Shown piece after piece: positions 6,551-62,597 of a DNA stretch of 64,000 nucleotides. This stretch comes from Anaerolineae bacterium. GTDB lineage: Bacteria > Chloroflexota > Anaerolineae > B4-G1. How positions within the stretch are numbered: position 1 is the stretch's first letter; each line of letters starts with the position of its first letter. The notes below the pieces were generated by a model. That model saw only the letters and a program-made list of their open reading frames with translations, was not told the origin of the DNA and did no database searches. The position numbers were made by a program, and so were the translations under genes. The stretch is taken from positions 5,483 through 69,482 of the forward strand of contig DAOUBA010000058.1 of assembly GCA_034432855.1 (NCBI GenBank). Reading direction: 5' to 3'.

Positions 6551-6592
6551 TGTCAACGCTTTATTGACATTTGCAACATAAAGTTATATAAT
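6551..6592 (+). promoter_or_regulatory. Consensus sigma70-like promoter TTGACA(6564-6569)-17 bp-TATAAT(6587-6592) overlapped by a perfect inverted repeat TGTCAA-N7-TTGACA (6551-6569), a candidate IclR operator
   Basis: Read directly: tgtcaacgctttattgacatttgcaacataaagttatataat. The region is AT-rich against a high-GC background and sits 58 bp upstream of the TPP-enzyme start, divergent from iclR. Confidence 0.5.
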
Positions 6593-6649: not shown

Positions 6650-8446
6650 ATGATATTGACCGGTGGCGAAATCGTCGTAGAGTTCCTTGTCCGTCATCGC
6701 ATCCCCTATCTGGTGGGTATCCCCGGCCACGGTTGCCTGGGCCTGGTGGATGCGCTGAGAAACTACCCGCAGCAAATCCAACTCCTTCAGGTTCGTCACG
6801 AACAGAGCGCCGTCCATCTGGCCGACGGCTATTACCGGGTCACCGGCACGCCCCTGGCTGTCTTGACTTCCATCGGCCCCGGCGCGATGAACACGGTGAT
6901 CGGCGTGGCCTCTTGCTTTGTGGATTCCATTCCCGTGCTGGTGCTCACCGGCAACGCACACACCCACATGGCCGGACGCGGCGTGCTGCAAGAGATCGAG
7001 CGCCGGCATGATGCCGATAGCCTCAGCGTGTTTGCGCCGATTGCCAAGCGTACATGGCGGCCCTCGCGGGTTGACCGACTGCCGGCCATCCTCCGGCGGG
7101 CCTTTATCGAGATGCTCGGCGGGCGGCGCGGCCCGGTCGTCGTTGACCTGCCGATGGATGTGCAATGCGACAGCGCCGAGGTGCGGGTGGAGGAACTGGC
7201 CAGCGTCCGCCCGCCGGGCTGCCCCATGCCCGACCCGACGTTGATCGAGCAGGCCGGGCGGCTGCTCCTGCAGGCGCAACGCCCCGTCCTGGTCGCCGGA
7301 GGAGGCGTCATCGCCGGCCATGCGTGGGACGAGTTGCGCGCGCTGGCCGAATTCCTCGGCGCGCCGGTGGTGACCACGATGATGGGCAAAGGGGCCTTTC
7401 CCGAAGACCATCCCCTTTCCGGATTTCACGGCGGCTCCAAAGGCACCACCTGCGGCAACGCGCTCACCGCCCGCGCCGACGTGCTCCTGGCCGTCGGCAT
7501 GCGCTTTGCCGACGAGTCCACGTCTTCCTACCGGCATGGCGTGACCTATGCCATTCCCCCCACGCGGTTGATCCACGTTGACCTGGACCCTGCCGAGATC
7601 GGCAAAAATTACCCGGCCGAGGTGGGCATCGTGGCCGATGCCAGGGCCGCGCTGGCGGCGCTGTTGGAGTGGCTGAGAGCCAGTAGCGCCCCACGAGATT
7701 ACCGCCGCAGCGCCTACTTCGCCGAAATTCAGCGCCTGCGGGAGGAATGGCTGGCCCGCGTGCGCGAACTCGCCACCTCCGATCACACCCCGGTCACCAT
7801 CTCCCGCCTGATCGCCGAACTGCGCGCTTTTCTCCGCCGGGATGCCATCGTCCTTACCTCGTCGGGGAACACCCAGGCCCAATGGTTCCAGGAAGCGATG
7901 GTCTATGAACCGCAGACCAACCTGACCACCGGGGGTTTTAGCACGATGGGCTGGACGCTGCCCGCCGCGTTGGGGGCCAAACTGGCTGCGCCGGAACGCC
8001 AGGTGGTCGGGCTGTTGGGCGACGGCGATTTCCTGATGACGGTGCAGGAACTGGCGACGGCGGTGCAGTACGACCTTCCCGTCGTCTATGTGGTGGCCAA
8101 CAACGCCGGCTGGATCGCCATCCGCGACCTGCAGGCGGCCGTCTATGGGCCGGCGCGGGCAGCCGGCGCCGAGTTCCTCAAGGATGGACGCCCTATCTCG
8201 CCCGATCTGGCAGCCATCGCCCGCGGCTTTGGCTGCTACGCCGAACGCATCTCGGCGCCTGAGGAGGTGCGTCCGGCGTTGGAGCGGGCCTTTGCCTCCG
8301 GGCAACCGGCGGTGATCGAGGTGCTGGTCGAGCGGGACTATCCTCTCTCCGGCAGCCCGGCGGTGGGCTGGTGGGATGTGCCGGTGCCCACCTATCTGAC
8401 CCAACAACGGGCCCGCTATGAGCAGGAACGGGCCGAGGAACAATAA
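6650..8446 (+). CDS. Thiamine-pyrophosphate-dependent enzyme of the acetolactate-synthase large-subunit / IolD-like family
   Basis: N-terminal TPP-enzyme fold (GIPGHGCLGLVDAL...VRHEQSAVHLADGYYRVTG...IGPGAMNTVIGVASCFVDSIPVLVLTG) and a C-terminal TPP-binding motif GLLGDGDFLMTVQELATAVQYDLPVVYVVANNAGW; RBS agagagg 7 nt upstream of ATG 6650. Confidence 0.8.
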   Translation: MILTGGEIVVEFLVRHRIPYLVGIPGHGCLGLVDALRNYPQQIQLLQVRHEQSAVHLADGYYRVTGTPLAVLTSIGPGAMNTVIGVASCFVDSIPVLVLTGNAHTHMAGRGVLQEIERRHDADSLSVFAPIAKRTWRPSRVDRLPAILRRAFIEMLGGRRGPVVVDLPMDVQCDSAEVRVEELASVRPPGCPMPDPTLIEQAGRLLLQAQRPVLVAGGGVIAGHAWDELRALAEFLGAPVVTTMMGKGAFPEDHPLSGFHGGSKGTTCGNALTARADVLLAVGMRFADESTSSYRHGVTYAIPPTRLIHVDLDPAEIGKNYPAEVGIVADARAALAALLEWLRASSAPRDYRRSAYFAEIQRLREEWLARVRELATSDHTPVTISRLIAELRAFLRRDAIVLTSSGNTQAQWFQEAMVYEPQTNLTTGGFSTMGWTLPAALGAKLAAPERQVVGLLGDGDFLMTVQELATAVQYDLPVVYVVANNAGWIAIRDLQAAVYGPARAAGAEFLKDGRPISPDLAAIARGFGCYAERISAPEEVRPALERAFASGQPAVIEVLVERDYPLSGSPAVGWWDVPVPTYLTQQRARYEQERAEEQ

Positions 8447-8460
8447 CTTCAGGAGGAGGC

Positions 8461-9531
8461 ATGTCGCCGATTCGCGTGGCCATTGTGGGCTGTGGCCGAA
8501 TTTCCGATTTGCACGCGCTGGGCTACCGTGACGTGGAAGGGGCGCGCATCGTTGCCGTGTGCGACACCAACCGCCGTCGCGCGCAGACGAAGGCCCGCGC
8601 ATGGGGAGCGGAACGGGTCTACACCGATTACCGGCAGGTGCTGGATGACCCGGAGATAGATCTGGTGGAGTTGCTGGTGCCGCACGACCTGCACGCTCCG
8701 ATGACCGTCGCCGCGTGTCGCGCCGGCAAGCACGTCTCGGTGCAAAAGCCGATGGCGCACACCGCTGCGGAGGCCGATCAGATGATCGCGGCGGCCCAAG
8801 AGACGGGGGTGGTGCTGCGGGTGTACGAGAATTTCGTCTTTTATCCACCGCACGTCCGGGCCAAGGAGATGATCGAGGCCGGCGAGATCGGCGAGCCGCA
8901 GATGATCCGCCTCCACGTGAGCACCGGCAGGAGCAAAACCGGCTGGAAGGTGCCGTTGAGCGCGTGGGCCTGGCGATTCGACGAGAAACGCTGTGGCGGC
9001 GGGCCGCTGGTTTTCGACCACGGCTATCATCTGTTCTCGCTGGCCTATCACCTGATGGGGCCGGTGGAGCGAGTGGTGGCCTGGATTGACCGCTCGCCGG
9101 TCATGCCGACCAAATATCTCGACGCGCCGGCGGTGATGATGTTTCAGTTCAAAGCCCCCCGTCGCTATGGGGTGATGGACTTTGCCCACACGCCCGAGAT
9201 GGTGATGGAGTCGCTCTATTACAACGACGACGACCGGGTAGAGGTGATCGGCGAACGCGGCATCATCCTGGTCAACCGCTGCACGGCCAAAACGGTGGAC
9301 CTGCCGCCGTTGATGCTCTTTCGGGACGGCAAAACCACCGCCATCCCCGTGGAACGCTTTGAATGGCACGACAGTTTTGTGGACTGCACCCGGCACCTGA
9401 TCAAGGTGCTGAGCAGCGGCGGGCAGCCGGTGCTGGACGGGCCGACGGGCAAAGCGGTGCTCCAGTTTACCCTTGCTGCCCACATCTCGGCCCGCGAAGG
9501 CCGCGAAGTGCGCCCGGACGAGGTACGTTGA
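8461..9531 (+). CDS. Gfo/Idh/MocA family NAD(P)-dependent oxidoreductase
   Basis: Rossmann N-terminus IRVAIVGCGRISDLHALGY...VVAVCD and the typical GFO_IDH_MocA core ...AGKHVSVQKPMA... Confidence 0.85.
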   Translation: MSPIRVAIVGCGRISDLHALGYRDVEGARIVAVCDTNRRRAQTKARAWGAERVYTDYRQVLDDPEIDLVELLVPHDLHAPMTVAACRAGKHVSVQKPMAHTAAEADQMIAAAQETGVVLRVYENFVFYPPHVRAKEMIEAGEIGEPQMIRLHVSTGRSKTGWKVPLSAWAWRFDEKRCGGGPLVFDHGYHLFSLAYHLMGPVERVVAWIDRSPVMPTKYLDAPAVMMFQFKAPRRYGVMDFAHTPEMVMESLYYNDDDRVEVIGERGIILVNRCTAKTVDLPPLMLFRDGKTTAIPVERFEWHDSFVDCTRHLIKVLSSGGQPVLDGPTGKAVLQFTLAAHISAREGREVRPDEVR

Positions 9532-9547
9532 TGCCGAAAGGAGACGA

Positions 9548-10900
9548 ATGATGAACGAGCAGACGGAAAAACTCTCGGTCAAAACCAAACTGCTCTACGG
9601 CGTGGGCGATGTCGGCAATGCCGTCGTCAACTCGGCCATTCAGTTCTTTCTGCTGGCTTTCTACACGGACGGCGCGCTCATTGCGGCGGGCTTAGCCAGC
9701 ACCGCCCTCTGGGTAGCCAAGTTCTGGGATGCGGTCAACGATCCCTTGTTCGGCTGGATTTCCGACCGCACCACCTCGCGGTTTGGCAAGCGCCGCGTCT
9801 ATATAATCTTTGGCGCCCTGCCACTGGCTATTTCCATCGCCTTGCTCTGGCGCGTGCCCCTCGGCCTATCCGAGTGGGGGTCTTTAATCTGGATTGCCCT
9901 GACCTTTGTGCTCTTCGACACGTTGTGGACGCTGACCAACGTGCCCTACTATGCGCTGACCGCCGAGTTGACCGAGGACTATGACGAGCGTTCCAGCCTG
10001 ACCGCCTTTCGTATGGTGCTCGGCGTGCCGGCGTACATCGTGGGCGCTGCCCTGACCCCCTTCCTGGTCGGCCTGTTCGCGGACAAACGGACGGGATACG
10101 GCGTGGTCGGCGTGGTCTACGGCCTTCTGGCTGCCATTGTGCTGTGGATCGCGGCCGCCGGCATTCGCGAACGCCAACAGATCGCCGCGAGCAAGGCCGA
10201 AACGCCCCCGTTGCGCACGTTTTTAGAAACCTTCCGCAACCGGCCGTTTGTGCGGCTGATTGTGGCCTTTTTGCTCGCCAACGTGGCCTTTGCGCTGATC
10301 AAGACGCTGCTCTACTATTTCCTCACCTACCAACTGGACATGGAAAAGCAGGTGTCGGTGGTGATGTTCATCCTGTTGCTCCTGGTGGTTCTGTTTCTCT
10401 TTCCCTGGAAAAAATTGTCCGAGCGCCTCGACAAGGGGCCGGCTTACGCCCTGGGGCTGCTCATCGGCGGGGTGGCCATGGCGCTGACCTTTTTCCTGCC
10501 GCATCGGCCGACGCCCTGGGTGTACGTCATCGCGGTTTTGGCCGGCATCGGCTTTTCGGCGCAGTGGGTCTTTCCCTGGGCGATGGTGCCCGATGTGGTC
10601 GAGATTGACCGGCTGGACACCGGCGAGCATCGCGGGGGAATGTATTACGGGGTCTGGGGGCTGGCTACCAAACTGTCCGATGCGCTGGGCCTGGTCGCTG
10701 CCGGTTGGGTCTTGCAGCTCTCCGGTTATGTGCCCAACGTGGCGCAGAGCGCCAGCACGCTGTTGGGCATCCGCTTGTTCTTCGGGCCGGTTCCATTGCT
10801 CTTTATCCTCTTCTCGCTGCCGTTGTTGTTCCGGTATCCAATCACCCGCCGGAGTCACGCCGCGCTGTTGGCGAAACTCGAGACGGCCGGGAAGGAGTAA
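9548..10900 (+). CDS. MFS transporter, glycoside-pentoside-hexuronide (GPH):cation symporter family
   Basis: GPH/MelB-like signature KLLYGVGDVGNAVVNSAIQFFLLAFYTDGALIAAG...DAVNDPLFGWISDRTTSRFGKRR; 12 predicted TM segments; RBS aaaggag before ATG 9548. Confidence 0.8.
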   Translation: MMNEQTEKLSVKTKLLYGVGDVGNAVVNSAIQFFLLAFYTDGALIAAGLASTALWVAKFWDAVNDPLFGWISDRTTSRFGKRRVYIIFGALPLAISIALLWRVPLGLSEWGSLIWIALTFVLFDTLWTLTNVPYYALTAELTEDYDERSSLTAFRMVLGVPAYIVGAALTPFLVGLFADKRTGYGVVGVVYGLLAAIVLWIAAAGIRERQQIAASKAETPPLRTFLETFRNRPFVRLIVAFLLANVAFALIKTLLYYFLTYQLDMEKQVSVVMFILLLLVVLFLFPWKKLSERLDKGPAYALGLLIGGVAMALTFFLPHRPTPWVYVIAVLAGIGFSAQWVFPWAMVPDVVEIDRLDTGEHRGGMYYGVWGLATKLSDALGLVAAGWVLQLSGYVPNVAQSASTLLGIRLFFGPVPLLFILFSLPLLFRYPITRRSHAALLAKLETAGKE

Positions 10901-12688: not shown

Positions 12689-14821
12689 CTACGCCGTGCG
12701 CGGCAGCGTGAGCGTGACGCGGGTTGAGACGCCGGGGACGCTATCTACCGTGAGAGTGCCCCCGACGACGGCCATCAGCGTGCTGTGGAGCGCCAACCCC
12801 TGGCCGCTTGTTTCGGACGGGCTGAAAGCCTGATCCACGCCTACTCCGTCGTCCTCAACGGTGAGTACAAGTCCGCCTGTCCTGGAATCCACCGCAGGAT
12901 CGCGCCAGGCAGCGGCAATGCGGAGATGGAGCGGTCGCTCCGTGTCCTGGCCGCGTCCGTGACGGGCAGCGTTGCGAATCGCCTCGCGCGCTGCGCAAAA
13001 GAGCACCTCTGCAATGACCGGAGGGAGCAGACGAGCCTCCCGTTCCGCCTGGGGTTCAATATCCCACGCCACCCGGTCGAAGGTCTGCCCGAATTCCTCC
13101 TCCACGGCGCGGCGCAGCGCGTCCACCAATCCCCAACGGGCAACCTCCGGCACGACCGCCGTGGGCATCTCGCGCAAGAGATCGGCAATCTGGCGATGGG
13201 CCTGGGTCAGCAGCGCGGCGACCTCCTCCGGCCGGCCGCTGTCCAACGTGAGCAGCGCGGCGTGCAGGCGCGGGAGGACGTCGTCGTGCAGCGTGCGACG
13301 GGCGCGGTGGTCGAGCACCCAACTGTGGGCCAGCCGCTCGCGCTGCAGGGCCATCAGGCGGCGGGCCATCTCGGCGCCGGCCTGCGCGTCAATCAGCCGC
13401 TCTCCACCGGCGCGGGCGATTTCGATCTCCTCCTGGGTGTACAGGCCACCGTCGCGCTTTTCCCCCAACAGCAACACCCCGATCAGACCCCGTTCGCTCC
13501 ACAGGGGCACGGCCCACACGGCGCCCGCGTACTGCGCCGGATCGAGCGGCACGCACATCGTCTGCGGCGAAGTGAATCGTCCGGCGAGATCGCCGAGCGA
13601 CGGCGGTTCGCCGCCGGGGTAGGCCAGTGGCGCGCCTGCAAGCGGAGCAAGCGGCCCCAGGGCGATGAGGTAGGCCACACGCGCCCCCAGCACATCCGCG
13701 CACAGCGCGCGGAAAGGCGTGGCCGCGTCAGCGTCAGACGACGCCGCTGAAGCGAGCAGGTGTTCGTACAGCCGCTGGCTGCCGATGAAGGGGCGCAGGT
13801 TCTCGATGCTGCGCTCACGCTCGGCAAAGGAGCGCCAGCCGAACAGCGCATAGAAGGCAATGATCAGCAGTGTGCTCAAGAGAAGGCTGTAGGCCGGGCG
13901 CAGGTGGATGGCCAGGCTCCAGCCGGTCAGCGCACTGTAACCGGCAGCGAGAATCACGGCGCTACGCCACTGGCGGAAAAATCCACGCCGTGGCAGCGCC
14001 TTGCCGGTGAAAATCTCATAGGAGACGACGCCCTGTCCCAGCAGGATGACCGCTAGGCCGATCAGCATGGCGGTGACGAGGTCGAACCAGGCGACGGCGA
14101 GGGCAATGTCAGCATAACCGATGCCGGTACGAGAGAGTGAACCGTAGCGGAAAGTCAGTGCGACCCATCCCATCACCAGCGCCACGAGCAGGCTGACGGC
14201 GAGCAGCGCGAGCGAGGAGGCGATCAGCCAGGGGCGGGCGCGGCGGCGGGCGAGATCGCCCATCACGCGGGCCGAGGGCCCCGGACGGCGCAGTGCATCG
14301 AGTGAGAGCGTGATACACAGAACGATGTAGATGGGGTAGACCACGAGCAGGAGCGGGACGCCGCCTACCGCCAGCGTTCCGGGAAGAACCAACGCCGTCA
14401 CCTGCCAGAAAGAGGGAAGCGCCCCCGCAGCAAGCATCCCCAAGAGGCCCAGGCCAAGGAGGAGCACCAGGGGGAGCCAGAACCGGTGCCGGCGACGGGG
14501 CAGGGTCTGTGCGCCATCCCAGAAACCAGCGTACCAGAGCATTGCCACGTACCAGGCCGGCGGTGAGAGGATCACCGGCACCCAGCCCACGCGCCACCAA
14601 AACTCGAGCCCCCTTCCCAGGTAGTCCAGGCCGCGCCCCAGGATGGCGGTGTGGCTGATGAAGAACACGCCGCCCATCAGCAACCCTCCACCCGCAAGCC
14701 AGACGCCCCAGGAACGACGTTCGGCGTTGAGGAGCACCGTCAGCCCCAACCAGAGCAGCAGGAAGGTGTTGAACAGCGAGACGGCCAGCCCAGCCCAGTC
14801 GAGGAAAAAATCGCCGGTCAT
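12689..14821 (-). CDS. Sensor histidine kinase: polytopic membrane N-terminus (about 10 TM), GAF-like domain, HisKA_3 (NarL-type) and HATPase_c
   Basis: H-box HDDVLPRLHAALLTL; ATPase motifs EAIRNAARHG...LVLTVEDDGVGV; extensive hydrophobic N-terminal half. Confidence 0.8.
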   Translation of the reverse strand: MTGDFFLDWAGLAVSLFNTFLLLWLGLTVLLNAERRSWGVWLAGGGLLMGGVFFISHTAILGRGLDYLGRGLEFWWRVGWVPVILSPPAWYVAMLWYAGFWDGAQTLPRRRHRFWLPLVLLLGLGLLGMLAAGALPSFWQVTALVLPGTLAVGGVPLLLVVYPIYIVLCITLSLDALRRPGPSARVMGDLARRRARPWLIASSLALLAVSLLVALVMGWVALTFRYGSLSRTGIGYADIALAVAWFDLVTAMLIGLAVILLGQGVVSYEIFTGKALPRRGFFRQWRSAVILAAGYSALTGWSLAIHLRPAYSLLLSTLLIIAFYALFGWRSFAERERSIENLRPFIGSQRLYEHLLASAASSDADAATPFRALCADVLGARVAYLIALGPLAPLAGAPLAYPGGEPPSLGDLAGRFTSPQTMCVPLDPAQYAGAVWAVPLWSERGLIGVLLLGEKRDGGLYTQEEIEIARAGGERLIDAQAGAEMARRLMALQRERLAHSWVLDHRARRTLHDDVLPRLHAALLTLDSGRPEEVAALLTQAHRQIADLLREMPTAVVPEVARWGLVDALRRAVEEEFGQTFDRVAWDIEPQAEREARLLPPVIAEVLFCAAREAIRNAARHGRGQDTERPLHLRIAAAWRDPAVDSRTGGLVLTVEDDGVGVDQAFSPSETSGQGLALHSTLMAVVGGTLTVDSVPGVSTRVTLTLPRTA

Positions 14822-14825
14822 TCGT

Positions 14826-15224
14826 CTACTTTACTCGCAACTCCTCCCATTCGCCACCCCGGTTGATCTGGCACTCCCACCGGTAACCATCCAGCCCTTC
14901 ATTGATTCTGGCGCAATGGATGGTCACGGTGTGGTTCTGCGCTTGTTCGATGTATTGGTGGCCGATTCTTTCGACGATGGCATCGGCCAGGTCAACGATG
15001 GCAGGTTCGGGGATTTCGGGTTCCGTGACCTTGCAGTGGAGCCATTCGGCCATTTGACAGGAAACCGTCCAGGCATCGGCGTTGGGGTTGCTTGCGTGGA
15101 TATAGTCCATCACGGCGTCGGCGGTGTTCTCCGAGAGATATATCTCCCGTGGCAGCCAACCGCACGCCAGAAGGAGAATCGCGAGCGTCGTACCCAATAT
15201 AAGAATTCTCCAGAAGGATTGCAT
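14826..15224 (-). CDS. Small Cys-rich lipoprotein (hypothetical) encoded between the response regulator and the histidine kinase
   Basis: Lipobox LLLAC-G after a hydrophobic leader; four further Cys; no recognisable family; 5 bp from the histidine-kinase start. Confidence 0.45.
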   Translation of the reverse strand: MQSFWRILILGTTLAILLLACGWLPREIYLSENTADAVMDYIHASNPNADAWTVSCQMAEWLHCKVTEPEIPEPAIVDLADAIVERIGHQYIEQAQNHTVTIHCARINEGLDGYRWECQINRGGEWEELRVK

Positions 15225-15230
15225 GTCTCC

Positions 15231-15968
15231 CTACAAATCCAATTCCACCCACTTGCCCGACGGGTCCGCCACGCGAGGGATACCGTCTTCGTCCCACAGG
15301 ATCAACTGGCGGCGGTGGTAGATGAGCGCCGCTCGCGTGCGCGCCACCTTGTCGTCCGTCGTGCTGCCGGCCAAACCCCAGGCGGCATAGATCTGCCCGT
15401 TGGTGCGGCTGACGGCGCGCGCATCCCGAAAGCCCAGTCGTGCGGCGATTTGCTCGTTGGTCAGCCCCTGCGCCAGCAATGCCACCACCTCGCGTTCGTT
15501 CGGCTCCAACAGCGCCAGCGGGTCATATTCGTCTTTGTAGCGCACCTCCTGCACCCGCGCCTCGATTTCCGGGTCAATGAAGGAGCGTCCGGCGACGGCG
15601 TCGCGCAGCAGGGGCACGATGCTCTCCGGCAGCAGATAGTTGCTCTTGCGGACGTAGGCATAATGGCTCAGGATGCCCGAGCGCAGGAAATCGCGGTAGT
15701 AGGCATCATCGTCCTGGATGGAGTAAAAGACGACCGGCAGGCGCGGATATTCGCGCCGCAAGGCGACGGCGGCCTGGATGCCGTTCATCTCCCCGGCCAG
15801 TTGCACATCCATCAACACCACGTCGGGCGGAACGGAAAGGCAACACGCGAGCGCCTTCTCGCCGTTGGCGGCCTCGCCCACCACCTGCACACTGCCAGTG
15901 GCCTCCAGCCCAATTTTGAGCGCGCGGCGCAGTGCGGCGTTGTCTTCCACCAGGAACGTCTTGAGCAT
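15231..15968 (-). CDS. NarL/LuxR family two-component response regulator with a roughly 60-aa C-terminal extension beyond the HTH
   Basis: Receiver domain MLKTFLVEDNAALRR...VVLMDVQLAGEMNGIQ..; LuxR HTH ...EREVVALLAQGLTNEQIAARLG...; start refined to MLKTF at 15968. Confidence 0.85.
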   Translation of the reverse strand: MLKTFLVEDNAALRRALKIGLEATGSVQVVGEAANGEKALACCLSVPPDVVLMDVQLAGEMNGIQAAVALRREYPRLPVVFYSIQDDDAYYRDFLRSGILSHYAYVRKSNYLLPESIVPLLRDAVAGRSFIDPEIEARVQEVRYKDEYDPLALLEPNEREVVALLAQGLTNEQIAARLGFRDARAVSRTNGQIYAAWGLAGSTTDDKVARTRAALIYHRRQLILWDEDGIPRVADPSGKWVELDL

Positions 15969-46657: not shown

Positions 46658-47761
46658 CTAAAAGTACGCTTCGTAACCGGTCAGGCCCAACTCGTCGCGC
46701 ATCACCTGGAACTCGTGGCGCAGGTTGGGGTTGGTGGGGATACCCTGCGCGCGCACGTGCTGCTCGCTCTCGTATTCCTTCTCGCCCGCCACGTAAATGC
46801 GTTCTGCGCCAGGGGCCTTGCGCGCCGCCTGCAACGCGCGCATAATCTCGCCGGTGATGTGGCGCGATTCCTCCAGCGGGATGAAATGCGCGATGTCAAT
46901 CGCCAAGAAAAAGTGGCCCAGCATAAAGGGGCGGCGGGAGCCATCGGGAGCGCGCCCCAGCAGGTCCTTCATGAACATCCCGCCACAGAGTGAAGCGCAG
47001 AGGATTTCGACCATCGTGGCCAGGCCGTACCCCTTGTACCCGGCAAATTCTTCTCCTGCGCCGCCGAGTGGCAAGAGCGCCGCTGCCCCCTTGTCCAGGT
47101 CCACCAGGATACGGCCGGGGTCGGTCAACGGGTTGCCCGTGCCGTCAATCACGACGCCTTCAGGCAGCGGCTTTTCGGCGCGCGCGGCGACTTCGACCTT
47201 GCCACGCTGGATGATCGAGGTGGCCGCGTCGAAGCAAAAGGGGTGTGGTCCGTCGGAGGGTGCAGCGAAAGCGATAGGGTTGGTGCCCAGCATTGGTTCG
47301 ACGCCGAATGTGGGCGCGATGGAAGGGCGGGCATTGGTCACGGTAAAGCCCATCATGCCCTCCCGGGCCGCCATCAGCGCGTAGTAACCGGCGATGCCAT
47401 AGTGGGTCGAGTTGCGCACGGCAACCGCTCCCAGCCCATAGCGGCGGGCTTTGTCTATCGCCATCTGCATCGCACGGTGGGCGATGACGTGGCCCATGCC
47501 GTGATGGCCGTCTATCAGCGCGGTGGTCTCGGTCTCCTTTGTGACTTCGATCTCGGTCCTGGTAGACTGAACGCCGGCCTTGATGCGGTCGTAGTAGTAC
47601 TTGAGACGGGCCACGCCGTGCGACTCGATGCCGCGCAGGTCGGCGGCGATGAGCACATCGGTGCAGATGCGGGCGTCCTCGGGGGGGACGCCCAAACCCA
47701 CGAAAACGTCGTACATAAAGGCTTCGATGATGGGGACGGGGATGTAAGTTACTTCTGTCAT
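46658..47761 (-). CDS. Ldh_2 family (malate / L-lactate / L-sulfolactate type-2) dehydrogenase
   Basis: ..DLRGIESHGVARLKYY.., ..HHGMGHVIA.., ..NSTHYGIAGYYA.., ..GTNPIAFAAP.. family blocks. Confidence 0.85.
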   Translation of the reverse strand: MTEVTYIPVPIIEAFMYDVFVGLGVPPEDARICTDVLIAADLRGIESHGVARLKYYYDRIKAGVQSTRTEIEVTKETETTALIDGHHGMGHVIAHRAMQMAIDKARRYGLGAVAVRNSTHYGIAGYYALMAAREGMMGFTVTNARPSIAPTFGVEPMLGTNPIAFAAPSDGPHPFCFDAATSIIQRGKVEVAARAEKPLPEGVVIDGTGNPLTDPGRILVDLDKGAAALLPLGGAGEEFAGYKGYGLATMVEILCASLCGGMFMKDLLGRAPDGSRRPFMLGHFFLAIDIAHFIPLEESRHITGEIMRALQAARKAPGAERIYVAGEKEYESEQHVRAQGIPTNPNLRHEFQVMRDELGLTGYEAYF

Positions 47762-47786
47762 AGGTCTCCTTCCAGGTTAGTGGGTT

Positions 47787-47824
47787 ATTCGTTCATTCGT
47801 GCATTCGTGCGATTCGCGTGATTC
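47787..47824. repeat. Tandem 8-bp repeats (ATTCGTKC x about 4) in the 5' leader of the Ldh_2 gene
   Basis: attcgttc attcgtgc attcgtgc gattcgcgtg attc, read directly, 26 bp upstream of the Ldh_2 start codon. Confidence 0.5.
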
Positions 47825-48455
47825 AAAGATGTCGGGTGATGAATCCTCTCTCGTGCACCCTGTTCTTATCGGGCCACCTGTTTAGGGCGGCCCGGCGAGA
47901 TTCGATTCTTGAGGACCTGGTGTGATGTGGTAACCCAACTACGGGTGCCTATGGACAAGTTGATACATTTTACACCTGACCGTGTATCCTGGCAAGAACC
48001 GCGGCTTGGTGATATCGGCTTGCGCAAAACCGCTTGTAAGCCTGCTCTGGATTCTGGCCTGATCTAGAGTATTGCTCGCGAAAAACATCACAACCGCGAA
48101 GATTTTTGGAGCGTAGATTCGCGCAGATTTTCGCAGAATGAAGAAAAAAACCAGCGTTCATCTGCGTTTATCTGCGTCCGCGCTTTTTAGGTTGCGGACG
48201 GAGGCCGCGTTATGCAATAGCCTTGTCTCTTCCCACGGATCTGGTCTTGAGCGTAGCGCAAAACTAACCCTGTGGGCGTGGCGCTAATGCTCCGCTCACA
48301 TTGCCTGCGTCGGGTCTGCAAGTGGTGGCAGGCTTTCAGCCTGCCTGCACGGGCTGGAAAGCCCGTGCCACTCCCGCTGTCACGAGACTTTGCCGTGCCG
48401 GCCGGACCTGCCGGGTTGTGACCCGGCAAGCACAGCCGGCGCGCGATGCAGTGGT

Positions 48456-48483
48456 TTGACTAGCGTGAGAGGCGGGGTATAAT
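48456..48483 (+). promoter_or_regulatory. Near-consensus sigma70-like promoter TTGACT(48456-48461)-16-TATAAT(48478-48483) driving the DNA methyltransferase gene
   Basis: ggtttgactagcgtgagaggcggggtataatcgagg, read directly, 9 bp upstream of the ORF start. Confidence 0.55.
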
Positions 48484-48491
48484 CGAGGACG

Positions 48492-49565
48492 ATGCAGAGG
48501 GTCGTTACCTACCAACAACCGCTCTTCCCTTGCCTGGTCGCCGGCTTTCCCTCCACGCGCTACCAGGGCAGCAAGGCGAAATTGGTAGACTGGATATGGG
48601 AGCAAATTGCTGTCCTGGATTTCGACACCTGCCTGGATGCTTTCGGCGGCACCGGTGCCGTCGCCTACCGCCTGAAACAAGAGGGCAGGGCAGTGACGTA
48701 TAACGACCTGCTCCGGTTCAACTACACCTTCGGCTTGGCGCTCATTGAAAACGCGAGAGTGCGGCTCGACTCCAGCGACCTGGATTGGCTCCTTCAGTGG
48801 CATCCTGACGTCACCTACCCCCGCTTTGTGCAGGATACTTTCCCCAACATCTATTTCACCGATGAGGAAAACGCCTGGATTGACCGGACCATCACCAACA
48901 TTCGCCGACTCGCCGATCCATACAAGTTTGCCCTGGCTTTCTTTGCATTGTGTCAGGCGTGTCTCGTGAAACGGCCCTTCAACTTGTTCCATCGCAAGAA
49001 TCTCTACCTTCGCTTTGCTGACGTGGAGCGCTCTTTTGGGAACAAGGCCTCTTGGGACAGGCCATTCGAGGAATGGTTCTGTACCTTTGTCGAGGAGGCG
49101 AACAAGGCTGTTTTCGATAACGGTCGGACGAATCGCGCGCTGAACTATGACGCAGTGGGCGTGCCAGGGGAATATGACCTGGTGTATGTAGACCCGCCTT
49201 ACATCTCGGCGCGTGGCGTTGCAGTGGACTATCGAGACTTTTACCATTTCCTGGAAGGGCTGACGATGTACGATGATTGGGAGCGATATATTGACCGTCA
49301 CTCCAAACATCGCCGCCTGAAACCGCAGCCGAACGGGCGGACGGATAGGCGATGTATCTATGAAGCATTCGACCGGCTGTTTCGGCGCTTCCGCAAGAGT
49401 ATTCTGGTCGTCTCCTACCGTAGCGATGGCATTCCGTCCGAACCAGAACTGGTTTCTCTTCTCAGACAGTACAAACGCAACGTGCGTGTCGAGCACTATG
49501 GTCAGTACAAGTACGTATTGTCCACTAACTCGGAGTCAAAAGAAATCCTCTTGATCGGAGTGTAA
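48492..49565 (+). CDS. DNA adenine methyltransferase, D12 class (Dam family), orphan (no restriction partner in window)
   Basis: Family motifs ..TRYQGSKAKLVDWI.., ..LDAFGGTGAVA.. (FxGxG AdoMet motif), ..DLVYVDPPY.. (DPPY catalytic motif); coding GC lower than the neighbours. Confidence 0.8.
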   Translation: MQRVVTYQQPLFPCLVAGFPSTRYQGSKAKLVDWIWEQIAVLDFDTCLDAFGGTGAVAYRLKQEGRAVTYNDLLRFNYTFGLALIENARVRLDSSDLDWLLQWHPDVTYPRFVQDTFPNIYFTDEENAWIDRTITNIRRLADPYKFALAFFALCQACLVKRPFNLFHRKNLYLRFADVERSFGNKASWDRPFEEWFCTFVEEANKAVFDNGRTNRALNYDAVGVPGEYDLVYVDPPYISARGVAVDYRDFYHFLEGLTMYDDWERYIDRHSKHRRLKPQPNGRTDRRCIYEAFDRLFRRFRKSILVVSYRSDGIPSEPELVSLLRQYKRNVRVEHYGQYKYVLSTNSESKEILLIGV

Positions 49566-49624
49566 GGCATGGGTGTAGACGATTTCCGGAAAAAGTGAGA
49601 GCCCGCCTCCTGGAAGGAGTACCA

Positions 49625-50353
49625 ATGGACTATACCTACGAACAAATTGCCAAGATGATTGACCATTCGCTGCTGAACCCCACTCTGACGGCGGACGATC
49701 TGGAACGGGGCTGCCAGATTGCGCGGCAATACGACGTGGCGAGCGTGTGCATTATGCCCTATTACCTGAGACGCTGCGCCGAGATCCTGGCCGGGAGTTC
49801 GGTCAAGCCGACTACGACGATTGGCTTCCCGCATGGCGGGCACACCACCGCCGTCAAGATTGCCGAGGCAAAGCAGGCGCTGGCCGACGGCGGCCAGGAA
49901 CTGGACATGGTGGTCAACATCAGCAAGGTGCTCAGCGGCGACTGGGCCTATGTGCGCGCCGACATCCAGGCCGTCGTGGATACTGCTCACGCGGAAGGAA
50001 AGAAGGTCAAGGTCATCTTTGAGAACTGCTACCTGCAGGACGAGCACAAGATCAGGCTGTGCGAGATCTGCGGCGAAGTGGGCGCCGATTGGGTCAAGAC
50101 CTCGACCGGATACGGGACGGGTGGCGCGACCGACGGGGACGTCCAATTGATGCGCCGGTACAGCCCGCCGCACGTGCAGGTCAAGGCCGCGGGTGGCATC
50201 CGCACGCTGGACCGATTGCTGGAAATGCGGGCGTTGGGGGTTACCCGTGTGGGGGCTTCTGCAACGGCGGCGATTCTCGACGAATGTCGCAGACGGCTGG
50301 GACTTCCGGCCATTGCAGGCATCGGTGGAGAGCATAACGCACAGGGATATTGA
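49625..50353 (+). CDS. deoC: Deoxyribose-phosphate aldolase
   Basis: ..IDHSLLNPTLT.., ..ASVCIMPYY.., ..LDMVVNIS.., Schiff-base region ..ADWVKTSTGY.. match DeoC. Confidence 0.85.
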   Translation: MDYTYEQIAKMIDHSLLNPTLTADDLERGCQIARQYDVASVCIMPYYLRRCAEILAGSSVKPTTTIGFPHGGHTTAVKIAEAKQALADGGQELDMVVNISKVLSGDWAYVRADIQAVVDTAHAEGKKVKVIFENCYLQDEHKIRLCEICGEVGADWVKTSTGYGTGGATDGDVQLMRRYSPPHVQVKAAGGIRTLDRLLEMRALGVTRVGASATAAILDECRRRLGLPAIAGIGGEHNAQGY

Positions 50354-53148: not shown

Positions 53149-53544
53149 CTACTCCGGTAAGCCCAATTTGTCGCGCACGAAGTGGCGTACAGTTTTCATT
53201 GCTTTTACCGCCTCGCGGGCTTCTTCATCGGTTGCCCCTTCGCCAGGGTAGCGAAACTCGACAGCATAGGGATTCAAAAGCAGCAGCAGGTCGGTGATCA
53301 GATCGAAGGCAGGGTCAACCGCCAGCGCCAGGCGGCGTAGTTCGCGCAAGTCGTGAGTTTTGGGGAATGTTGCTCCTCGCTGTACGAGGAAAGCCTTGAG
53401 ATATTTCTCGGCACATTGCTGGCAGTGGAAACAAACGGTATTCGGTGTTGGCCGTTTCCGTTTGCGGATCAATGTGACGGCGGTGTCATAGTCCTCTTCC
53501 GCTTTACGCACCCACTCTGCCAGGTGTTCATCGGTCCCGTTCAT
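53149..53544 (-). CDS. HEPN domain protein (toxin-like partner of the nucleotidyltransferase)
   Basis: ..DYDTAVTLIRKRKRPTPNTVCFHCQQCAEKYLKAFLVQRGATFPKTHDLREL.. is a HEPN fold with an R-x(4-6)-H-like motif; start placed at MNGTDEH, overlapping the nucleotidyltransferase stop by 17 nt. Confidence 0.65.
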   Translation of the reverse strand: MNGTDEHLAEWVRKAEEDYDTAVTLIRKRKRPTPNTVCFHCQQCAEKYLKAFLVQRGATFPKTHDLRELRRLALAVDPAFDLITDLLLLLNPYAVEFRYPGEGATDEEAREAVKAMKTVRHFVRDKLGLPE

Positions 53545-53848
53545 AGAGTACCTGTCCCCGTTGAATGATTTCTTGAATAAAGCAGTCGCCAATGCGCAAG
53601 CGGTGCTGGATTTCTTCTGGCGTGCGTACCAGGATGTCCATAGGGAAGGGGATATCCAGCAGGGCGCGAGCGATGCGAGCGCTGCGCCGGGCAGGCCGAT
53701 CGCTATCTTCCATTACGACCAGCAGGTCTATGTCGCTGTCTGGCGTGGGCTGGCCCCAGGCGTAGGAGCCGAACAGGATGACTTGTTCTGGTTTGAACGT
53801 TTGCGCGATGCGTTGCGCCACTTCCGCGATCTGTTGCTCTGTGATCAT
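53528..53848 (-). CDS. Minimal nucleotidyltransferase (MNT, Pol-beta-like), antitoxin-like partner of HEPN
   Basis: MITEQQIAEVAQRIAQTFKPEQVILFGSYAWGQPTPDSDIDLLVVM.. (GS..x..DxD NTase motif); RBS ggagggagg; the ATG overlaps the recJ stop (ATGA). Confidence 0.75.
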   Translation of the reverse strand: MITEQQIAEVAQRIAQTFKPEQVILFGSYAWGQPTPDSDIDLLVVMEDSDRPARRSARIARALLDIPFPMDILVRTPEEIQHRLRIGDCFIQEIIQRGQVLYERDR

Positions 53849-62517: not shown

Positions 62518-62597
62518 CCCCCTTTCCCCACCCCCATCCCCCTCCCCTTTCCCCCGCTGCGGGGGAAAGGGGAGGGGGTAGGGGAGGGGTTAGGGGG
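62518..62597. repeat. Long G/C-tract palindrome; the core is a perfect 19-bp inverted repeat CCCCCTCCCCTTTCCCCCG-ctg-CGGGGGAAAGGGGAGGGGG (62538-62578) with imperfect extension
   Basis: Read directly; immediately 3' of the stop of the minus-strand gene 62598..62864; six runs of four or more G on one strand. Confidence 0.7.

Follow-up and report, generated by a model that had tools for sequence, protein, structure and literature searches.

The methylase gene described here is very probably the M half of a horizontally acquired Type II restriction-modification (R-M) operon of the order M then R, from which the gene of an EcoRV-family nuclease has been deleted in situ. As an example of how orphan methylases originate, the locus is ordinary but exceptionally well documented. 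The features that bear on this reading, located in the 64-kb window (the whole stretch of DNA that was analysed), are the following:

48492–49565, + strand: apparently intact gene of a D12-class N6-adenine DNA methyltransferase (M), 357 aa
49569–49598, + strand: probable stub of the deleted EcoRV-family restriction endonuclease gene (R), ATG GGT GTA GAC GAT TTC CGG AAA AAG TGA, encoding MGVDDFRKK*
49599–49613: probable deletion junction, bounded by the R stub and by the resumed homology to the region upstream of DeoC in locus L062
49625–50353, + strand: gene of a DeoC-family aldolase (Pfam PF01791), 86% identical to the DeoC that follows M and R in L062

Comparison with 67 related M loci (57–85% identical protein, at least 10 phyla) revealed an EcoRV-family R gene, intact or decayed, directly downstream of M in 46 of them. 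R was classified as intact-like in 31 loci, split or partial in 15 and absent in 18, and three loci reached the contig end. A conserved gene of about 260 aa was found at −22 to +30 nt after M in 36 of the 59 GTDB loci; its product belongs to PF09233 (Endonuc-EcoRV, E 1e-102) and, in the PDB, aligns with EcoRV chains (5e-44). The nuclease of the relatives is 37% identical to R.EcoRV, and the QN, PD, D-x-K and GSGNT residues, the catalytic and base-contacting (recognition) residues of EcoRV, are aligned with those of the latter. As a rule, the nearest relative of a methylase without R is one accompanied by R, which indicates that the loss of R is recurrent. In loci L063–L065, M is followed by a 302-aa gene that was flagged as NmeDI_C in a precomputed table, and a Pfam search gave no match for it.

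The closest relative, L062, contains M (85% identical), an EcoRV-like R, DeoC (86%), PAP2 (64%) and a 587-aa gene (71%) in this order, and the gene order downstream of the methylase in the window is the same, minus R. DeoC is the downstream syntenic anchor and lies outside the R-M module. The stub begins 3 nt past the M stop codon, and R starts 0–30 nt past M in the relatives. The encoded peptide resembles the N-termini of the nucleases of loci L006 (MIVDDFRKSLL) and L062 (MKVDSFRESL), and with a PSSM score of 21.3 bits it ranks first among the 107,086 stop-free 8-mers in the six frames of the window, the runner-up scoring 13.4 bits. Among the other R-less loci no N-terminal stub of the nuclease with a comparable score was found, the best one reaching 10.4 bits. 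The blastn homology to L062 resumes at 49614 (position 10358 of L062), 11 nt before the DeoC start, and at the junction L062 has about 1.25 kb made up of R (9083–9865) and a 490-bp spacer. A tblastn search of the window with 42 R ORFs and fragments from the relatives gave a best E-value of 0.028 and no EcoRV-like sequence. The M-stub-DeoC arrangement was also found in L061, a contig of a separately built Logan assembly that may derive from the same sample.

The original prediction described the methylase as an orphan with no restriction endonuclease neighbour. As far as intact genes are concerned this holds, and the enzyme is indeed solitary within the 64 kb, but the nine-codon R stub stands immediately behind M, and the position of R downstream of M in the related loci argues that the gene is not an orphan by origin. 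The cognate nuclease, whose discovery nearby had been said to speak against a solitary methylase, was found in fossil form only.

The composition of the gene was also correctly described as being below the background: its GC content is 54.5% (GC3 67.6%), compared with 60.5–65.0% (GC3 76–81%) in seven flanking genes, which supports the view that the methylase gene is compositionally foreign. In L062, M and R likewise form low-GC islands (54% and 53%, respectively, compared with 61–66% in their neighbours). The dN/dS ratio between the methylase and its L062 counterpart is 0.07. The dS values in the same comparison are 1.22 for the methylase and 0.64 for DeoC, about a twofold difference, which may reflect allele replacement by transfer instead of strictly vertical descent.

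The 357-aa product matches Pfam PF02086 (MethyltransfD12) over residues 24–244 with an E-value of 2.8e-16 and 60.4 bits, the gathering cut-off being 22 bits. The best PADLOC profile is MTase_II PDLC03261 (E 2.3e-67), matched at profile positions 302–624 of 643. The predicted FxGxG and DPPY motifs are present: motif I is LDAFGGTG at residues 48–55, DPPY occupies residues 234–237, and D49, G53, G55, D234, P236 and Y237 fall in invariant columns of both family alignments. Of the residues conserved in the family, 128 out of 130 are kept; W283R is a non-conservative replacement of a residue shared by at least 95% of the relatives. Judging from its sequence, the methylase looks intact, and its N-terminus is conserved from residue 1 in the relatives. 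An AlphaFold2 model built from a 32-sequence alignment had a mean pLDDT of 51.9, too low for a reading of the fold or the active site, and neither sequence nor profile searches of the PDB gave a significant match.

The attribution of the enzyme to the Dam family is acceptable in the broad D12 sense, as PF02086 indicates, but not in the strict sense: with the GATC-specific TIGR00571 model it scored 20.4 bits, and the NCBIfam cut-off is 114.85 bits. The gene should not be annotated as “Dam”. An assignment to the M.EcoRV type was rejected as well, the similarity to M.EcoRV and to methylases located beside other EcoRV-family nucleases being confined to two short motif-level segments (pairwise E 5e-4 to 1e-7).

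It is likely that M and R stood directly before DeoC in the common ancestor with L062. A deletion of about 1.25 kb in the lineage represented by the window would then have taken out R, starting near codon 9 and ending shortly ahead of the ribosome-binding site of DeoC, and spared M. Such a loss of R would be harmless, whereas a prior loss of M, with R active, would be lethal, and this asymmetry would explain why M persists. The enzyme is probably still made from its near-consensus sigma-70 promoter, on an mRNA that would be leaderless or nearly so, and may still N6-methylate adenine in the site formerly cut by the lost nuclease. That site is most likely GATATC, since the nucleases of the relatives keep the catalytic and base-contacting residues of EcoRV. 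The observed-to-expected ratio of GATATC is 0.62 in the loci with intact R, 0.82 in those with decayed R, 1.06 in those without R and 0.92 in the 64-kb window; the intact-R loci show a modest depletion, by which GATATC takes 18th place among 64 palindromes.

How orphan methylases, which are common, originate is a matter of debate. According to a large pan-genome survey (Oliveira et al. 2014, PMC4176335), recent decay of a complete system in situ is seldom the source of a solitary methylase, and the prior probability of this route is consequently not high. At the M-DeoC locus, the stub and the synteny outweigh this low prior. The locus makes a clean counter-example to the rarity of in-situ decay, because the first 8–9 codons of the nuclease survive and the full gene is found in a syntenic relative. 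Moreover, every stage of nuclease decay can be seen within one methylase family spread over at least 10 phyla: intact, frameshifted and internally deleted R genes, a stub, and loci with no trace of R. The case is useful as an example of R-M turnover, and no new mechanism is revealed.

The DNA on the other side of the methylase was analysed separately. The features concerned are:

46658–47761, − strand: gene of an Ldh_2-family dehydrogenase (Pfam PF02615, E 6e-123)
47762–48491: divergent intergenic region from Ldh_2 (−) to M (+), 730 bp, non-coding
47787–47816: imperfect 8-bp tandem repeat ATTCGTGC ×3.6 (TRF score 44, 90% matches)
47967–47995, − strand: promoter-like site TTGCCA-17-TAAAAT facing Ldh_2 (10 of 12 consensus positions)
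48112–48176: six ATCTGCG-like heptamers with 10-bp phasing, three per orientation, with an A-rich centre (inverted and direct repeats, TRF period 10)
48322–48443: cluster of three GC-rich hairpins with perfect stems of 8–9 bp (48327–48345, 48347–48368 and 48409–48428)
48456–48483, + strand: sigma-70-type promoter TTGACT-16-TATAAT (11 of 12 consensus positions)

The consensus promoter that had been predicted before the methylase is confirmed and is a strong one. Six matches with at least 11 of the 12 positions occur in the 64 kb, compared with 0.1 expected from shuffles. The −10 element ends 8 nt before the ATG of the methylase, so the predicted mRNA has no leader or one of about 3 nt at most. 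The copies of CGATGCAG(T/A)GG at 48444 and 48490 were considered as the possible trace of a short duplication from which the promoter arose; their similarity ends after about 16 nt and was taken as chance.

The 730-bp gap is the largest in the surrounding 21 kb of called genes, and its GC content is 51.9% at 47762–48299 and 65.6% at 48300–48491. Searches of this region against the 67 M loci (blastn and tblastx) and 80 Ldh_2 loci (blastn) found similarity in the same genome only. No blastn match was found among GenBank phages and PLSDB plasmids, no repeat copy longer than 13 nt exists in the rest of the window, and the comparison of eight small ORFs with Pfam gave a noise match only (E 0.076). 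The relatives with 88–91% identical Ldh_2 have different genes upstream of it. It seems that the 730 bp are lineage-specific DNA at a synteny breakpoint, outside the R-M module: a rearrangement may have joined the Ldh_2 block to the methylase, with the 730 bp standing at the junction and carrying the putative Ldh_2 promoter region, the phased heptamer array and the hairpin cluster. A replication origin (oriC) was considered for this divergent, AT-richer, repeat-bearing gap and rejected, as the cumulative GC skew rises steadily without a switch and neither dnaA nor dnaN is among the called genes within ±10 kb.

The earlier description of this region as structured and non-coding was borne out by real repeats and three clustered hairpins. 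The 8-bp tandem repeats and the direct repeats are real too, but their setting differs from the one first assumed. The ATTCGTGC repeat lies in the 5' region of the divergent Ldh_2, preceding its start by 26–55 nt, and is separated from the methylase by about 675 bp; the direct repeats, ATCTGCG(T) at 48160 and 48170, are part of the six-heptamer array, in which TRF also found a 10-bp repeat of 2.4 copies (48154–48177).

It is possible, although unlikely, that the 730 bp constitute a functional non-coding element, namely a small RNA or leader with three hairpins, or a heptamer array controlling the divergent Ldh_2 and M promoters. The cluster accommodates, within 102 bp, three of the approximately 15 perfect hairpins (stem of at least 8 bp) of the window, and the folding z-scores of its 156 nt are −4.6 (+ strand) and −7.3 (− strand). 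The array, which looks like an operator or iteron, is non-random: all four matches of the window to ATCTGCG-N3-ATCTGCG (up to two mismatches) are in it, and none of 100 shuffles reached four. In relatives whose Ldh_2 is 91% identical, this gene is likewise preceded by a long region rich in hairpins (455 bp). On the other hand, the covariance-model scan suggested for the region upstream of the methylase gave no relevant RNA family, the only Rfam 15 match at 47500–48700 with E up to 1 being a microRNA model (E 0.91) inside a coding region; no match was found at the gathering thresholds in the whole window. Searching 929 kb of related loci with a covariance model of the hairpin cluster returned self-hits only, and since no sequence or structure homologue occurs there, the cluster has no covariation support. 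By reading of the sequence, none of the three hairpins is followed by a U-tract, and the predicted fold of the heptamer region is no more stable than that of shuffled sequences (z = −1.6).

Domestication of the methylase after the loss of R, as an epigenetic regulator like Dam or CcrM and possibly a phase-variable one, is doubtful. The low dN/dS indicates strong purifying selection, but it spans time when R was still present. M was kept after R loss in several lineages, but this is also expected from a simple lack of counter-selection, and the clade is not uniformly orphan, as L062 keeps R. The near-consensus promoter of the leaderless type is consistent with a regulator. So is a GATATC at 48011, just upstream of the putative Ldh_2 promoter; however, a single site in 730 bp has a chance expectation of about 12%, given 11 sites in the 64 kb. 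As to the suggested phase variation, no simple-sequence tract exists in or beside the methylase: TRF was run on 47700–48560 and the remaining ORF was checked by reading, and neither of the two repeats found by TRF, including the imperfect ATTCGTGC one, is anywhere near the promoter or the ORF.

A further reading would make the methylase, instead of a passive leftover, a recruited, constitutive writer of an epigenetic mark (consensus promoter, leaderless mRNA), with a new regulatory module in the 730 bp, composed of the six phased ATCTGCG heptamers and a three-hairpin RNA, coupling methylation to the expression of the divergent Ldh_2 operon. This we regard as quite improbable.

The arrival of a solitary methylase on a phage or a large mobile element, with an anti-restriction role and with the 730 bp as a remnant of that element, is very improbable. 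Such arrival is the usual route for solitary methylases (Oliveira et al., PMC4176335), the gene is low in GC and matches PHROG methyltransferase families, and the 730 bp have no homologue and stand at a synteny break. However, the R stub lies directly after M and the M-R-DeoC synteny is seen in L062, the 64-kb window lacks tRNA genes, and the called genes within ±10 kb, which are metabolic or housekeeping apart from a HEPN/MNT pair, include neither an integrase nor a transposase. IMG/VR contains no relatives, the matches in GenBank phages are distant (at most 35% identity), and the 730 bp resemble neither phage nor plasmid DNA. The suggestion of a phage or mobile-DNA remnant is thus not borne out.

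We give hardly any credence to a system that is still functional, with the cognate nuclease or another partner encoded elsewhere: only about 64–80 kb of the genome are visible and split R-M systems are known from work cited within PMC4176335, but the truncated stub occupies the cognate position, the 64 kb are devoid of EcoRV-like sequence and GATATC is not depleted in them.

The in-situ loss of R from an M-R operon, which we favour, can be set beside several known systems. Like Dam (GATC) and CcrM, the housekeeping orphans, the enzyme is, within the 64 kb, a solitary adenine methylase, and Dam is also of the D12 class; unlike them, it is far below the Dam cut-off and its orphan state is not conserved across the clade. 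The closest annotated homologues, with 35–41% identity over nearly the full length, are the C-terminal halves of the tandem double D12 methyltransferases that accompany AlwI-family Type IIS nucleases (e.g., on Geobacillus pGS18). Those are fused two-domain enzymes of 630–710 aa with asymmetric sites and a nuclease of a different family, whereas the methylase described here is a single domain of 357 aa whose family partner is an EcoRV-type nuclease.

With the EcoRV R-M system of the E. coli plasmids of the pLG13 / pLG74 type, the locus shares the D12-class N6-adenine methylase and a partner nuclease that in the relatives also belongs to PF09233. Unlike in that system, the nuclease is deleted at the M-DeoC locus, and the homology of the methylase to M.EcoRV is limited to motifs I and IV (BLASTP E 5e-4, 43 aa). 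The gene order differs as well: M and then R, co-directional, in the family studied here, M divergent from an HTH gene and R in pLG13, and R and then M in the Rhodothermus and Antarctobacter plasmids. The solitary methylases left by decayed R-M systems are similar in having an intact M, a lost nuclease, a foreign composition and purifying selection. The in-situ route is uncommon in pan-genome surveys (PMC4176335), whereas here its intermediates are visible in one family.

The product of the methylase gene (357 aa) matches Pfam PF02086, the D12 class of N6-adenine DNA methyltransferases, with an E-value of 2.8e-16. The catalytic DPPY and motif I (LDAFGGTG) are both intact, falling on alignment columns that do not vary across the family. 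The original prediction assigned the protein to the Dam family; the D12 class stands, but Dam in the strict sense was ruled out by a TIGR00571 (Dam) score of 20.4 bits versus a cut-off of 114.85. As had been noticed, the coding GC is below the background, with 54.5% (GC3 67.6%) against 60.5-65.0% (GC3 76-81%) in seven surrounding genes. The predicted structure model reached a pLDDT of only 52. The features of the locus are as follows.

Features around the methylase gene (window coordinates)
46658-47761, minus strand: Ldh_2-family dehydrogenase gene, upstream flank
47787-47816: tandem repeat ATTCGTGC, 3.6 copies, 26-55 nt from the Ldh_2 start
47995-47967, minus strand: putative Ldh_2 promoter, TTGCCA-17-TAAAAT
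48112-48176: heptamer array with 10-bp phasing, six copies, three of them in each orientation
48327-48428: three perfect hairpins with 8-9 bp stems, within 102 bp
48456-48483, plus strand: promoter TTGACT-16-TATAAT, 11 of 12 consensus positions
48492-49565, plus strand: methylase gene
49569-49598, plus strand: nuclease stub, ATG GGT GTA GAC GAT TTC CGG AAA AAG TGA (MGVDDFRKK*)
49625-50353, plus strand: DeoC-family aldolase gene, downstream flank

A search of 5.8 billion proteins found thousands of methylase relatives; the best 120 share 73-85% identity with the window protein, and almost all have a length of about 357 aa. Among GTDB species representatives, a scan found 59 loci whose methylases are 57-78% identical; they belong to Anaerolineae, other Chloroflexota, Planctomycetota, Omnitrophota, KSB1, WOR-3, Verrucomicrobiota, Desulfobacterota, Nitrospiria, Aminicenantes and one Methanosarcina. 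Clustering of all ORFs flanking the methylase revealed that in 36 of these loci it is followed, at -22 to +30 nt, by a gene of ~260 aa on the same strand. Its product matches Pfam PF09233 (E 1e-102), PADLOC REase_II and the chains of EcoRV crystal structures (5e-44), and the PDB alignment with EcoRV matches QN, PD, D-x-K and GSGNT, which correspond to the Q-loop, catalytic residues and recognition loop of EcoRV. By these matches, the gene encodes an EcoRV-family restriction endonuclease, and its place after the methylase in related loci indicates that the window protein belongs, as its M subunit, to a mobile Type II module of M-then-R order whose nuclease is of the EcoRV type.

Of 67 methylase loci, 31 have an intact-like nuclease and 15 a split or partial one (a class that takes in frameshifts, internal deletions sparing only both ends, and contigs ending within the gene); it is absent in 18, and three contigs end too early. 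In three related loci (L002 5525-5695, L040 1616-1825 and L055 2311-2472), only nuclease residues ~1-40 and ~230-258 remain, and the near-identical end points suggest either the spread of a shared ancestral allele or a hotspot at which deletion recurs. In L063-L065 (9151-10059), where the methylase is 82% identical, a 302-aa gene occupies the place of the EcoRV-like nuclease; it has a PF27126 NmeDI_C flag in a precomputed table and no match in the Pfam scan, and may be a different nuclease swapped in beside the same methylase.

The closest relative of the window locus, L062 (NCBI FWPU01002371.1), has a methylase 85% identical to that of the window, followed by an EcoRV-like nuclease, a 490-bp spacer, DeoC, PAP2 and, further downstream, a 587-aa gene. 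The L062 methylase (54% GC) and nuclease (53% GC) are both low-GC islands. The window shows this same order, its DeoC being 86%, its plus-strand PAP2 phosphatase gene 64% and its counterpart of the 587-aa gene 71% identical, with 59 nt from the methylase stop to the DeoC start. Directly after this stop lies the nine-codon stub; the nucleases of relatives begin with MIVDDFRKSLL (L006), MIVDDFRESLL (L010) and MKVDSFRESLL (L062). On a position-specific score matrix derived from 26 nuclease N-termini, the stub scored 21.3 bits, the top of 107,086 stop-free 8-mers in the six frames of the window (second-best 13.4), and genuine nuclease N-termini scored 13.9-29.3. Nucleotide homology to L062 picks up again 11 nt ahead of the DeoC ATG, at 49614. 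The stub and the resumed homology point to a deletion of ~1.25 kb that took out the nuclease gene from about codon 9 onwards together with the spacer.

No EcoRV-like sequence was found elsewhere in the 64-kb window, and the statement that the methylase has no restriction endonuclease neighbour holds for an intact gene, but not for the stub. The M-stub-DeoC-PAP2 arrangement is also present in L061, a separately built Logan assembly contig that is perhaps from the same sample as the window; a MAG-specific misassembly at M-stub-DeoC is unlikely. Among the loci without the nuclease, the window alone has a recognisable N-terminal stub. The methylase most probably became an orphan by decay, as the M gene of an EcoRV-nuclease-type R-M operon whose R was deleted in situ. 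The original observation was correct and its interpretation partly right, missing this origin of the orphan.

At 130 columns conserved to at least 95% in 30 methylases whose nuclease partner is intact, the window methylase keeps the consensus residue in 128, departing by K66R and W283R; its relatives show 0-3 such departures each. Comparison with L062 gave dN 0.082 and dS 1.22 (ratio 0.07) for the methylase, and dN 0.085 and dS 0.64 for DeoC. This shows purifying selection on the methylase over most of its divergence from L062, an interval from which the period after nuclease loss is not separable.

The nearest relative within the set has an intact nuclease for 9 of 13 methylases without one; such pairs include L056 with L044/L045 (91%), L024 with L010 (91%) and L022 with L014 (88%). 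By this pattern, R has been lost and M retained many times. The asymmetry of R-M systems makes R loss with M retention expected. The repeated loss is noteworthy because solitary genes were seldom found in the same pan-genome families as complete systems (Oliveira et al. 2014, PMC4176335). The locus is a clean, datable example of orphan methylase formation, and it also corrects a "Dam" annotation.

The recognition loop is conserved in the nucleases of the family and suggests GATATC as the likely target. Site counts under a maximal-order Markov model provide a weak independent test.

GATATC sites, observed and expected
Loci with intact nuclease (315 kb): observed 47, expected 75.4, O/E 0.62
Loci with decayed nuclease: observed 24, expected 29.4, O/E 0.82
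Loci without nuclease: observed 45, expected 42.6, O/E 1.06
Window: observed 11, expected 11.9, O/E 0.92

The depletion in intact-nuclease loci is modest (rank 18 of 64 palindromes), and the trend is consistent with a GATATC target and avoidance relaxed once the nuclease was lost. The only GATATC within 47000-50000 is located at 48011-48016, 16-21 bp upstream of the putative Ldh_2 -35 element; the chance expectation of one per 730 bp is ~0.12. In the 64-kb window, GTCGAC (0 observed, 10.6 expected) and ATCGAT (1 versus 9.0) are strongly depleted, which hints at present or past restriction systems at these sites in this genome.

The consensus promoter reported before the methylase was confirmed as one of six matches of at least 11/12 positions in 64 kb, compared to 0.1 in shuffles. 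This excess indicates that the organism uses this promoter type, with 48456-48483 among its best examples. The -10 element ends 8 nt short of the ATG and the methylase N-terminus is conserved in relatives from residue 1; the mRNA is probably leaderless or has a leader of at most ~3 nt. Two perfect 12/12 sigma-70 promoters, TTGACA-17-TATAAT, were also detected at 6556 (minus) and 6564 (plus), with adjacent -35 boxes and opposite directions, the plus one ending 11 nt before an ATG.

Within the surrounding 21 kb of called genes, no other stretch between two genes is as long as the 730-bp gap (47762-48491). The 8-bp tandem repeats described there are real, but they lie beside the divergent Ldh_2 gene, ~675 bp from the methylase. 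The direct repeats, two copies of ATCTGCG(T), proved to be members of the larger heptamer array; all four window matches to ATCTGCG-N3-ATCTGCG with at most two mismatches fall in 48112-48176, and four were reached in 0 of 100 shuffles. The hairpins were also borne out, the 156-nt cluster having fold z-scores of -4.6 (plus strand) and -7.3 (minus strand); the whole window contains ~15 such perfect hairpins versus 8.75 in shuffles. No other perfect hairpin in the window comes near the length of CCCCCTCCCCTTTCCCCCG-CTG-CGGGGGAAAGGGGAGGGGG at 62538-62578, which is GC-rich and has a 19-bp stem.

Homology to other methylase loci ends ~15 nt upstream of the ATG, the upstream regions being unrelated across the family, and homology to loci with 88-91% identical Ldh_2 ends where Ldh_2 starts; upstream of it, those relatives carry different genes, co-directional with it. 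A DUF5107 gene found upstream of the methylase in L062 and L063 is missing from the window. The loss of homology on both sides, together with the missing gene, argues that the 730 bp lie at a rearrangement junction and are themselves lineage-specific. A covariance-model scan for ncRNA families gave no Rfam match to the region, which also has no phage or plasmid match, no Pfam match for its eight small ORFs and no second copy elsewhere in the window; over 929 kb of related loci, a covariance model built on the hairpin cluster found no match. The best guess is that 47762 to ~48000 comprises a putative Ldh_2 leader and promoter; the heptamer array looks like a candidate protein-binding site, and the hairpins may represent either relic terminators or an uncharacterised RNA. 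In two Ldh_2 loci (L097 3046-3500 and L068 666-1120), a 455-bp hairpin-rich non-coding spacer, without sequence similarity to the window's region, precedes a 91% identical Ldh_2; this gene may generally have a long structured leader in the clade.

Beyond Ldh_2, TspO-like, histidine-kinase and fucosidase genes follow on the minus strand. The proposed remnant of a prophage or other mobile element was rejected: tRNA genes are absent from the 64-kb window, no integrase is present among the called genes within 10 kb either side of the methylase, the methylase has no IMG/VR relative, and its GenBank phage matches are at most 35% identical. Phase variation was dismissed, as no repeat tract was seen within the methylase gene or close to it. 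A pair of HEPN and nucleotidyltransferase (MNT) genes, a typical toxin-antitoxin module, is located ~3.6 kb downstream of the methylase at ~53149-53848 (14658-15357 in the related locus L060). Directly upstream of the L062 methylase (7381-7958), two short ORFs (76 and 82 aa), whose fragments are separated by an in-frame stop, are a candidate decayed MazF/PemK-like toxin-antitoxin pair, without a Pfam match.

The window methylase was rejected as a homologue of M.EcoRV (pLG13), since BLASTP aligned the motif I and motif IV segments alone, and the same is true of Rhodothermus and Antarctobacter plasmid methylases located beside EcoRV-family nucleases. The nearest annotated homologues (35-41% identity) come from double D12 methylases of 630-710 aa, of which they form the C-terminal half; these enzymes adjoin AlwI-family Type IIS nucleases; in agreement, the best PADLOC profile is matched at positions 302-624 of 643. 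The lack of M.EcoRV homology and the kinship with double D12 enzymes indicate that the module joins an EcoRV-type nuclease to a different D12 lineage. Its genes stand in the order M then R, whereas in pLG13 M diverges from R and an HTH gene.
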